This document shows, piece by piece, positions 45,234 through 48,200 of a stretch of 64,000 bases of DNA. The stretch's first letter is position 1. The number at the start of each line of letters is the position of its first letter. The position numbers were made by a program. Source of the stretch: Escherichia coli (lineage in GTDB: Bacteria > Pseudomonadota > Gammaproteobacteria > Enterobacterales > Enterobacteriaceae); the NCBI RefSeq assembly GCF_003790525.1, contig NZ_CP033636.1; one strand, written 5' to 3'.

Positions 45234-48200
45234 TAACTGTCAGACCAAGTTTACTCATATATACTTTAGATTGATTTAAAACTTCATTTTTAATTTAAAA
45301 GGATCTAGGTGAAGATCCTTTTTGATAATCTCATGACCAAAATCCCTTAACGTGAGTTTTCGTTCCACTGAGCGTCAGACCCCGTATATCGCTTGCTGAT
45401 TACGTGCAGCTTTCCCTTCAGGCGGGATTCATACAGCGGCCAGCCATCCGTCATCCATATCACCACGTCAAAGGGTGACAGCAGGCTCAGAAGACGCTCC
45501 AGTGTGGCCAGAGTGCGTTCACCGAAAACGTGCGCCACAACTGTCCTCCGTATCCTGTCATACGCGTAAAACAGCCAGCGCTGACGTGATTTAGCACCGA
45601 CGTAGCCCCACTGTTCGTCCATTTCAGCGCAGACAATCACATCACTGCCCGGTTGTATGCGCGAGGTTACCGACTGCGGCCTGAGTTTTTTAAGTGACGT
45701 AAAACCGTGTTGAGGCCAACGCCCATAATGCGGGCAGTTGCCCGGCATCCAACGCCATTCATGGCCATATCAATGATTTTCTGGTGCGTACCGGGTTGAG
45801 AAGCGGTGTAAGTGAACTGCAGTTGCCATGTTTTACGGCAGTGAGAGCAGAGATAGCGCTGGTGTCCGGCAGTGCTTTTGCCGTTACGCACCACCCCGTC
45901 AGTAGCTGAACAGGAGGGACAGCTGATAGAAACAGAAGCCACTGGAGCACCTCAAAAACACCATCATACACTAAATCAGTAAGTTGGCAGCATCACCCGA
46001 TGCAGCTTTCGTCAATCATGACAGTTATGAGTTTTCCGGTTACTTATCCATTTTTGCCAGCGTGTTCCGCAACATCTGTTTTACTGTTTACACAGCACTC
46101 TTCACGTAAGAATTCGATGATAGCTTCCAGTATTTCGTATTGAGAGACACACATGAGCGTTCGACTCTCCCGGTTTTGTGTGACGAGCCCTACTGATACC
46201 AGGGCTGAAATATGATGACTTAACGTTGATGAGGGAATGCCAAGCTGCTTTTGCAATTCACCTACAGGCAAACCTTGTTCTCCAGCTTTTACAAGATGTT
46301 TGAATATGAACAAACGGGTCGGGTGACCCAGCTCTTTTAGTGCTTTAGCTACTTCTTCCAGTTGCATGTGACAACCCTCTGTCTAATGATATTTCGATAA
46401 TACCAGAAATATCTTGACCAGAATTATATTTCGATTATTCTAGAAACGTAGATTTTGTCAAGAGGGTTTAGTATGAATAGTTGGATTTCTATGCTGCAAG
46501 ATGCCGCAGAGATGTTTTTGTTTTTGGCCGTCGAGCTATCTTTGCTGTTTATTGTCATCAGTGCCGGTGTGAGCCTGATAAGGCAAAAGGTCCCGGACCA
46601 TAAAATCCAGCAATTGATAGGGGCGAAAAAAGGAAAAGGCTACCTGCTGGCCTCGTTGTTGGGAGCCGTTACCCCTTTCTGTAGTTGCTCAACAATTCCA
46701 ATGCTACGAGGGTTGTTGTCGGCGAAAGCAGGGTTTGGTCCGACACTCACTTTTTTGTTTGTTTCACCGTTGCTTAATCCCATTATCGTGGGGTTAATGT
46801 GGGTTACCTTTGGCTGGAAAGTAACTTTGTTGTACGCGATCATCGCTGCCGGTGTCTCAGTCCTTGCCAGTATCGTATTGGATTTACTAGGATTTGAACG
46901 TCATATTGTTGATCACAAAAACTCAGCATCAAGTGGTTGCACCACGAAATGCGATGATTCCGAAGCTTCGGTAAAAACGTCGGCGGGTTCCAGTTGTTGC
47001 AGCACTAGCTCGACTCAATTGCCTTTAAAAACGAGTTGCTGTACTTCATCAGCGAACCCCATAATTAACTTAAGGACGGTAAAGAACGAGCAGAACGTAT
47101 CAGCGTGTTGTTCATCAATATCATCTGAACAACCAGCTGTTAGCTGTTGCAGCAGCGAGAATCTGGGCAATGTGAATCTCACAACGAATACCACCTCTGG
47201 CCCAATAAAGTTAGCTATGAAAGATGCCTTACAGCAGTTTAAGGATGTTCTGCCTTATCTTTTGTTAAGTGTATTAATAGGTTCATTTATTTATGGCTTT
47301 ATCCCTTCAGAGTGGATTGCAGCTCATGCCGGAGCAGATAATCCCTTAGCCATACCGCTGAGTGCAGTTGTTGGTATTCCGTTGTATATCCGCGCAGAGG
47401 CAGTGATACCACTTGCATCAGTGCTGATGACTAAAGGAATGGGCCTGGGGGCATTAATGGCCTTGATAATCGGTAGTGCTGGAGCGAGTTTGACAGAAGT
47501 AATACTGCTTAAATCAATGTTCAGAATGCCTATGATAGTCGCTTTTCTGACAGTAATCCTGGGTATGGCCATACTTATGGGGTATCTGACCCAATTGCTT
47601 TTTTAATAATAATAGTAAGGGTCTTCTGGTGGCACTGTTGCAAATAGTCGGTGGTGATAAACTTATCATCCCCTTTTGCTGATGGAGCTGCACATGAACC
47701 CATTCAAAGGCCGGCATTTTCAGCGTGACATCATTCTGTGGGCCGTACGCTGGTACTGCAAATACGGCATCAGTTACCGTGAGCTGCAGGAGATGCTGGC
47801 TGAACGCGGAGTGAATGTCGATCACTCCACGATTTACCGCTGGGTTCAGCGTTATGCGCCTGAAATGGAAAAACGGCTGCGCTGGTACTGGCGTAACCCT
47901 TCCGATCTTTGCCCGTGGCACATGGATGAAACCTACGTGAAGGTCAATGGCCGCTGGGCGTATCTGTACCGGGCCGTCGACAGCCGGGGCCGCACTGTCG
48001 ATTTTTATCTCTCCTCCCGTCGTAACAGCAAAGCTGCATACCGGTTTCTGGGTAAAATCCTCAACAACGTGAAGAAGTGGCAGATCCCACGATTCATCAA
48101 CACGGATAAAGCGCCCGCCTATGGTCGCGCGCTTGCTCTGCTCAAACGCGAAGGCCGGTGCCCGTCTGACGTTGAACACCGACAGATTAAGTACCGGAAC

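Follow-up and report, generated by a model that had tools for sequence, protein, structure and literature searches.

Whether two divergent genes for an arsenic-type regulator and a permease, lodged among the insertion sequences (IS) of a resistance plasmid, form an arsenical efflux system, and for which arsenicals, is the question raised by a 64,000-nucleotide stretch of Escherichia coli DNA (NZ_CP033636.1, assembly GCF_003790525.1), here called the window. The first gene, arsR2 (46044-46367, minus strand), encodes an ArsR/SmtB-family repressor of 107 amino acids (aa; WP_001175593.1), recognised from its open reading frame (ORF), an NCBIfam match and a structural relative. The second (46473-47606, plus strand) encodes a 377-aa ArsP-family permease (WP_001089729.1), recognised from PF03773, an AlphaFold2 (AF2) model and purifying selection. 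With the permease starting at ATG 46473, the spacer between them (46368-46472) is exactly the 105 bp that the original prediction had given for a divergent intergenic region.

We judge it somewhat more probable than not that the pair is an ArsR2/ArsP efflux module which trivalent arsenicals induce and which has been orphaned on the plasmid; its substrates would probably be organoarsenicals such as methylarsenite or reduced roxarsone. The gene structure, family membership, conservation of the operators, synteny in relatives and purifying selection are supported by the data. The module, uncharacterised and widespread, carries generic annotation and is of a kind already known.

The regulator and its cysteines

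RefSeq labels WP_001175593.1 'metalloregulator ArsR/SmtB family transcription factor', and its score of 63.2 bits against NCBIfam NF033788 (ArsR/SmtB winged-helix HTH_metalloreg), above the cut-off of 55, confirms the ArsR-family regulator of the original prediction. Its nearest solved relative is the ArsR of A. ferrooxidans (AfArsR, 6J05; E 1.8e-11), which has a C-terminal type 2 site. The regulator resembles it in a vicinal cysteine pair at the end of helix alpha5, where Cys91-Cys92 (codons 46092-46097, minus strand) fall without gaps on the As(III) ligands Cys95-Cys96. From this alignment and their conservation, the two residues are predicted to bind an arsenical. The third ligand of AfArsR, Cys102, corresponds to Asp98 and no cysteine follows it, leaving the type 2 set of three cysteines incomplete.

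Conservation was followed in 121 sequences of the subfamily. Cys73 is present in all 121, Cys91 in 117 and Cys92 in 116; a cysteine in the tail occurs in only about 8-9 homologues, and the N-terminal half is without a conserved cysteine column. The regulator itself has no cysteines beyond these three. Invariant Cys73 (codon 46149-46151, minus strand), which lies just before helix alpha5 in the beta-wing region, is a candidate third ligand; in an antiparallel alpha5 dimer it might approach Cys91/92 of the partner subunit.

Two other kinds of sensing site were rejected. The type 1 site of R773 ArsR (Cys32-Cys34-Cys37, in ELCVCDL) has no counterpart, the regulator being devoid of cysteine in the alpha3 region, and persulfide sensing of the BigR/SqrR type is excluded by the absence of the alpha2 cysteine and by a BigR model score of 37.8 against a cut-off of 155.

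As(III) sensors usually employ three thiolates (PMC11868830). SpArsR of S. putrefaciens has a reduced two-cysteine site (Cys101-Cys102) and responds to methylarsenite, not to arsenite (PMC11868830, PMC13236881). Compared with SpArsR as it is described, the present regulator has the vicinal pair, likewise misses the counterpart of AfArsR Cys102 (PMC11868830, PMC13236881), and possesses the extra invariant Cys73. This beta-wing cysteine distinguishes it from both SpArsR and AfArsR, as do the length of this regulator type, only 97-107 aa, and an ATATTTC-N10-GAAATAT operator defined by comparative analysis only. Since three near-invariant cysteines including Cys73 are present, the sequence does not decide between selectivity for methylarsenite only and a response to arsenite as well.

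Control region between the two genes

The spacer contains a 25-nt direct repeat (46385-46409 and 46422-46446; 84% identical, spaced 37 nt), whose first copy holds an 8-10-8 inverted repeat, GATATTTC/GAAATATC. The predicted operator O1 (46389-46412) is a perfect 7-10-7 palindrome, ATATTTC-N10-GAAATAT, which becomes 8-10-8 when the flanking G/C is included (46388-46413). The predicted operator O2 (46426-46449), ATATTTC-N10-GAAACGT, is an imperfect copy of O1, located through the direct repeat and conserved across loci. The 21-nt pattern ATATTTCGATWATNCNAGAAA is found at these two sites only in the 64 kb, where none is expected from 100 shuffles.

A consensus scan gave a candidate permease promoter, TTGACC-16 nt-TATTCT (46414-46441, plus strand; 9/12 matches), and a candidate arsR2 promoter, TTGACA-16 nt-AATAAT (46434-46461, minus strand; 11/12 matches). 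The TTGA of the former is kept in most of the compared loci, and the -35 hexamer of the latter is only partly kept in relatives. The two candidate promoters stand face to face; O2 spans the -10 boxes of both, and O1 abuts the permease -35 hexamer and sits in the arsR2 leader.

Nine loci, ranging from Escherichia to Aeromonas, show hardly any variation in the control region, including the inverted repeat of O1. ATATTTC-N10-GAAATAT sites also adjoin ArsR2 homologues in Serratia, Shewanella colwelliana, Vibrio and Microbulbifer, the distant sites being located at 4838-5003 of locus L016, 4880-5003 of L014, 5305-5430 of L015, and 4843-5003 and 5320-5650 of L017. O1 and O2 are taken as the putative operators of ArsR2 because site and regulator are inherited together in distant genera, and good comparative evidence supports this assignment. 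The palindrome and the ArsR2-type regulator thus define a predicted regulator-operator pair that spans several gammaproteobacterial orders. The repeated intergenic motif had originally been suggested as a possible ArsR operator; the palindrome halves, their retention in 9 loci and their presence in distant genera bear this out comparatively.

The ribosome-binding sites of the two genes (46373-46380 and 46461-46468) also form a perfect 8-nt inverted repeat, AACCCTCT/AGAGGGTT, which makes the 105-bp control region almost a palindrome over its entire length.

The permease core

The permease ORF opens at TTG 46455 (383 aa). Its likely start is ATG 46473, 7 nt after AGAGGG, which is also the RefSeq start of the identical protein WP_001089729.1, labelled only 'permease'. 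The full-length match to Pfam PF03773 (ArsP_1; E 6.7e-53, residues 10-374 on model positions 4-293 of 294) upholds the earlier designation as an ArsP-like permease. PF03773 is equated with TCDB 2.A.119, the Organo-Arsenical Exporter family, whose members have two four-helix halves and, between them, a hydrophilic loop that varies in size (PMC7176098). The AF2 model, built on a 94-sequence alignment, matches this description, having a mean predicted local distance difference test (pLDDT) value of 82.6, confident helical halves at residues 2-138 and 244-376, and short paired helices broken at 67-70 (the TPFC turn) and 305-307. A sequence search found no solved structure related to the permease, and a Foldseek search with the fold gave no match. 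The ratio of nonsynonymous to synonymous substitution (dN/dS) in the membrane core, obtained from eleven alleles and orthologues, is 0.03-0.07, indicating strong purifying selection.

The motif TPFCSCS (residues 67-73; 46671-46691, plus strand) stands out by its position, its conservation and its place at a helix break in the model. In alignment A1 the conservation of C70, S71 and C72 reaches 90% or more, and the CSC tripeptide occurs in 63 of the 96 sequences compared, that is, the query and its 95 nearest full-length cluster representatives. Cys70 and Cys72 are the predicted substrate-binding thiol pair; in the model they lie where a membrane helix is discontinuous.

The equivalent loops of the two halves differ in lysine and arginine content across the family, loop 1 having a mean of 4.6 and loop 5 a mean of 0.6. 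This asymmetry tentatively favours inverted repeats with re-entrant hairpins over a parallel 4+4 arrangement; from such a topology we infer only that CSC would be placed at a hairpin tip and the cysteine-rich loop in the cytoplasm. A plain parallel 4+4 topology was set aside as unlikely, as it would make that loop periplasmic and conflicts with the asymmetry between loops 1 and 5.

The cysteine-rich central loop

The halves are connected by a Cys/Ser/Thr-rich loop of about residues 146-243 (46908-47201, plus strand), delimited by its cysteine positions and the AF2 model and predicted to be disordered, with pLDDT <50 for residues 168-236. It contains 10 cysteines, arranged as CC at 175/176, 189/190, 212/213 and 225/226 and a CX3C (C156, C160); the five CC pairs counted originally are thus four CC pairs and one CX3C. 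Nor is the loop unusual, as had been thought, since 33 of the 96 compared sequences carry at least one CC in it; at least two loop cysteines occur in 57 of them, and two or more CC in 17.

The loop evolves fast (dN/dS 0.3-0.8), and indels gain or lose CC modules among the eleven alleles and orthologues, in every one of which one loop CC is retained. No tandem repeats were found in the loop DNA, which rules out recent slippage repeats as the source of the modules. Between the window and the allele of plasmid pHS4_2, synonymous divergence is 0.058 in the loop (46908-47201) and 0.35 in the core; from this contrast, the two alleles appear to be recombinant mosaics. The pHS4_2 allele is also without an 18-codon CC module.

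ArsD, a metallochaperone, binds As(III) and Sb(III) through vicinal cysteine pairs. The loop resembles it in bearing several vicinal CC pairs on a soluble segment, and differs in being disordered, hypervariable and fused to a transporter, with no sequence homology to ArsD; any binding by the loop is suggested by analogy.

Genomic context in relatives

All close chromosomal relatives that were examined have ars genes next to the divergent pair, in several arrangements. A contig scan with a single protein as query, its peptide patterns being too specific, gave only 6 loci, which nevertheless served for synteny. In Salmonella, arsRDABC is followed by arsH, arsR2 and the permease gene, and Citrobacter sp. 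NCU1 has arsH, arsR2 and the permease gene in a locus that ends before anything upstream of arsH. The pair follows arsRBC in E. fergusonii, E. whittamii and E. coli W, arsRDABC in C. gillenii, and arsC-acr3-arsA-arsD-arsR in two Aeromonas species; in Buttiauxella, arsRBC and arsH lie on the other side of the permease gene. The FMN-reductase-like neighbours are true ArsH, scoring 373-406 against a TIGR02690 cut-off of 292. In Serratia fonticola an ArsR2 homologue lies directly upstream of arsH-arsD-arsA. The link to arsenic proposed originally is therefore supported by the kept adjacency to ars operons and arsH.

In E. coli itself the chromosomal matches number 2248; with plasmid copies counted in, a match is present in 2386 of 5426 complete genomes. 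Two E. coli chromosomes were inspected, and both have the pair flanked by arsC and slp (arsRBC-pair-slp). A 4.83-Mb assembly labelled 'E. coli DH5alpha' (NZ_CP026085.1, locus L018) has an arsRBC-arsR2-permease locus whose protein accessions are those of E. coli W. K-12 is not known to have more than yhiS/IS5 at the corresponding position, and the strain label is probably wrong.

This company bears on a first alternative, in which the module serves inorganic As(III)/Sb(III), alone or with organoarsenicals, through a three-cysteine ArsR2 (Cys73' with Cys91-Cys92) and a permease that exports arsenite in addition to ArsB or Acr3. The three near-invariant cysteines of the regulator would suit it, As(III) sensors normally having three thiolates (PMC11868830), and close relatives always have the module beside inorganic-arsenic operons. 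In those genomes, however, ArsB or Acr3 already stands beside the pair, which argues for a complementary substrate of the permease; As(III) is no substrate of the characterised ArsP (PMC6205960), and the frequent coupling to arsH, the gene of an organoarsenical oxidase, points to organoarsenicals. We therefore hold an arsenite module to be unlikely. The preferred assignment to organoarsenicals is indicated by the regulon of arsR2 with arsH and the permease gene, because ArsH and ArsP both act on trivalent organoarsenicals, the former by oxidation and the latter by export (PMC6205960, PMC6953987).

Substrate and mechanism

With the ArsP of C. jejuni (CjArsP) the permease shares full-length membership of the same Pfam family, a CxC cysteine pair in the first half of the protein, two four-helix halves with a hydrophilic loop (here in the AF2 model), and relatives encoded in or beside ars operons. 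The CxC cysteines are reportedly needed for CjArsP transport, according to work of Chen et al. in 2015. CjArsP is a protein of about 315 aa; the permease here differs in its loop of ~100 aa with 10 cysteines, and in being divergent from a dedicated ArsR of its own. Among ten low-GC-looking candidate cluster representatives (including Ignatzschineria and Arsukibacterium), none was a Campylobacter protein. C. jejuni ArsP exports methylarsenite, MAs(III), and trivalent roxarsone, Rox(III), but not As(III) (PMC6205960).

In the mechanism that we propose, an ArsR2 dimer would bind the two 24-bp palindromes over the face-to-face promoters and repress both arsR2 and the permease gene. A thiol-reactive arsenical would bind Cys91-Cys92, possibly together with Cys73 of the partner subunit, and release the repressor. 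The permease would then extrude the arsenical via the membrane-embedded Cys70-x-Cys72 at the helix break, with the disordered cysteine-rich loop perhaps trapping substrate at the cytoplasmic face. The inducer, the substrate, the direction of transport and the role and sidedness of the loop are what we infer here from the relatives, the alignments and the model.

Several observations weigh against an organoarsenical module. The only NCBIfam matches of the permease are below threshold, namely to the SO_0444 Cu/Zn efflux family (NF033936; 116.1 bits against a cut-off of 300) and to SaoE (NF040736; 87.8 against 325). CSC is the most conserved motif common to SO_0444 Cu/Zn exporters and SaoE (bioRxiv 10.1101/2022.07.06.499078). 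TPFCSCS/CSC is thus family-wide, Cu/Zn exporters included, and not diagnostic of an arsenical substrate; the original prediction was right about the presence of the motif and gave it too much weight as a mark of organoarsenical permeases. SO_0444 mutants are Zn- and Cu-sensitive (PMC3219624), so the superfamily also handles metal cations. As Cys73 lies outside the described AfArsR and SpArsR sites, inducer selectivity is not readable from the regulator. The likeness to CjArsP is drawn by family and description and that to SpArsR by description, not by alignment. A tblastn search with ArsA, B, C, D, H and Acr3 queries found no other ars gene in the window, and the local context is therefore uninformative on arsenic. 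The distant ArsR2-permease pairs of Shewanella colwelliana, Vibrio and Microbulbifer are without ars neighbours, and a literature search found no experimental study of this regulator/permease clade.

Some of these points favour a second alternative, in which the permease exports soft-metal cations (Cu(I), Zn(II), Cd(II)) in the way proposed for Shewanella SO_0444, the loop binds metal and ArsR2 is a thiolate metal sensor. ArsR/SmtB proteins do include sensors of Cd, Pb and Zn. The top NCBIfam match of the permease is the SO_0444 family, which, like SaoE, belongs to the same superfamily and has the same CSC signature, and the distant pairs lacking ars neighbours also accord with this alternative. 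However, the permease lies far below the equivalog cut-offs of both families, and SO_0444 is under a ZntR-like MerR regulator, not an ArsR (PMC3219624). The neighbours of these families are zntR or the SAO locus, whereas the close clade of the present pair is linked to ars operons and arsH and not to cop, czc or znt. The cysteine pair of the regulator aligns with the As(III) ligands of AfArsR, and the CmtR Cd/Pb model scores 21.5 on it against a cut-off of 150. A soft-metal exporter is accordingly regarded as quite unlikely.

Plasmid setting and distribution

The captured DNA is 1.63 kb long (45999-47630) and lies between an IS1 remnant and a complete IS26, just where the original prediction had placed the pair. 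The IS1 remnant on the left (45384-45998, 615 bp, minus strand) was identified from its InsA/InsB ORFs. Its end facing arsR2 is intact and lies 45 bp beyond the arsR2 stop codon, where relatives have arsH; its InsB end is cut by a Tn2/Tn3 terminal inverted repeat ending at 45383. On the right, IS26 (47631-48450, 820 bp, plus strand), identified from its terminal repeats (47631-47644 and 48437-48450) and transposase ORF, begins 24 bp after the permease stop codon.

This 1.63-kb inner fragment is found in 647 PLSDB plasmids, with coverage of at least 80% in 615. The carriers are mostly Escherichia, Salmonella and Klebsiella plasmids and mostly conjugative, and fall into three allele groups by identity (>=99%, 95-99% and 90-95%). 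A sister allele in IncF-type plasmids adjoins backbone genes, and its neighbour in pHS4_2 is an ArsH that IS26 has reduced to a stump of 117 aa. The window, pHS4_2 and Salmonella remain homologous right up to the IS1 end. Taken with the ArsH stump, this marks the window copy as the orphaned remainder of an arsH-arsR2-permease segment. IS1 would thus have removed arsH and the rest of the ars cluster, with IS26 closing the other side. A pair of this kind on Salmonella pSLT plasmids has been named 'arsR and arsP' from annotation only (PMC9484752).

A third alternative holds the pair on this plasmid to be a mere passenger, an intact relic between IS elements that confers no selectable benefit. It is, after all, the stump of a larger ars region that lost arsH to IS1, and it sits in a mosaic with six IS26; many E. 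coli already have a chromosomal homologue, and linkage to resistance genes could by itself have carried identical copies into hundreds of plasmids. Yet the window copy has kept both ORFs, both candidate promoters and both predicted operators intact, and 80% or more of the fragment recurs in no fewer than 615 plasmids. The three allele groups persist on different plasmid backbones, and comparison of alleles shows strong purifying selection on the core (dN/dS about 0.05). These findings make a mere passenger very unlikely.

The organoarsenical reading may also be taken further, to a resistance against trivalent organoarsenicals, derived from the feed additives roxarsone and arsanilic acid or from microbial methylation; the inducible module would then be a co-selection determinant that has gone unrecognised on at least 615 IncHI2/IncF-type multidrug-resistance (MDR) plasmids of E. 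coli, Salmonella and Klebsiella. This extended claim includes two new features, an arsenical site uniting alpha5 Cys91-Cys92 with the partner's beta-wing Cys73, and a disordered, fast-evolving poly-CC loop serving as a built-in arsenical-capturing arm. That all these parts would hold jointly is doubtful.

The neighbouring DNA is rich in mobile elements. Immediately left of the IS1 remnant are blaTEM-1 (44376-45236) and a tnpR fragment, the Tn2 terminal repeat coming after blaTEM-1, and within 45347-45998 the InsB reading frame continues into the Tn2/Tn3 terminal repeat. Six complete 820-bp IS26 copies are present in the 64 kb (14714-15533, 26842-27661, 38121-38940, 41721-42540, 42977-43796 and 47631-48450), and the resistance region is therefore an IS26 mosaic. 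Just right of the last copy is a 1009-aa Tn3-family transposase ORF (49092-52121), for which RefSeq annotates a 2988-bp version (WP_000124023.1) on sister plasmids.

Biological significance

If it is not functional, the pair would be an ordinary relic of an ars cluster. If it is functional, it would be a small inducible determinant for trivalent organoarsenicals on MDR plasmids of livestock-associated E. coli and Salmonella, one that resistance-gene screens leave unreported because RefSeq names the gene just 'permease'; arsenical co-selection of such plasmids would then become directly testable. It would equally be a system native to E. coli, whose chromosomal homologue follows arsRBC in the inspected chromosomes, about 40% of complete genomes having matches. 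For the family, the module may offer a handle on how ArsP-family permeases use a CxC pair and a cysteine-rich loop, and its clean operator/repressor pair might serve a possible organoarsenical biosensor.

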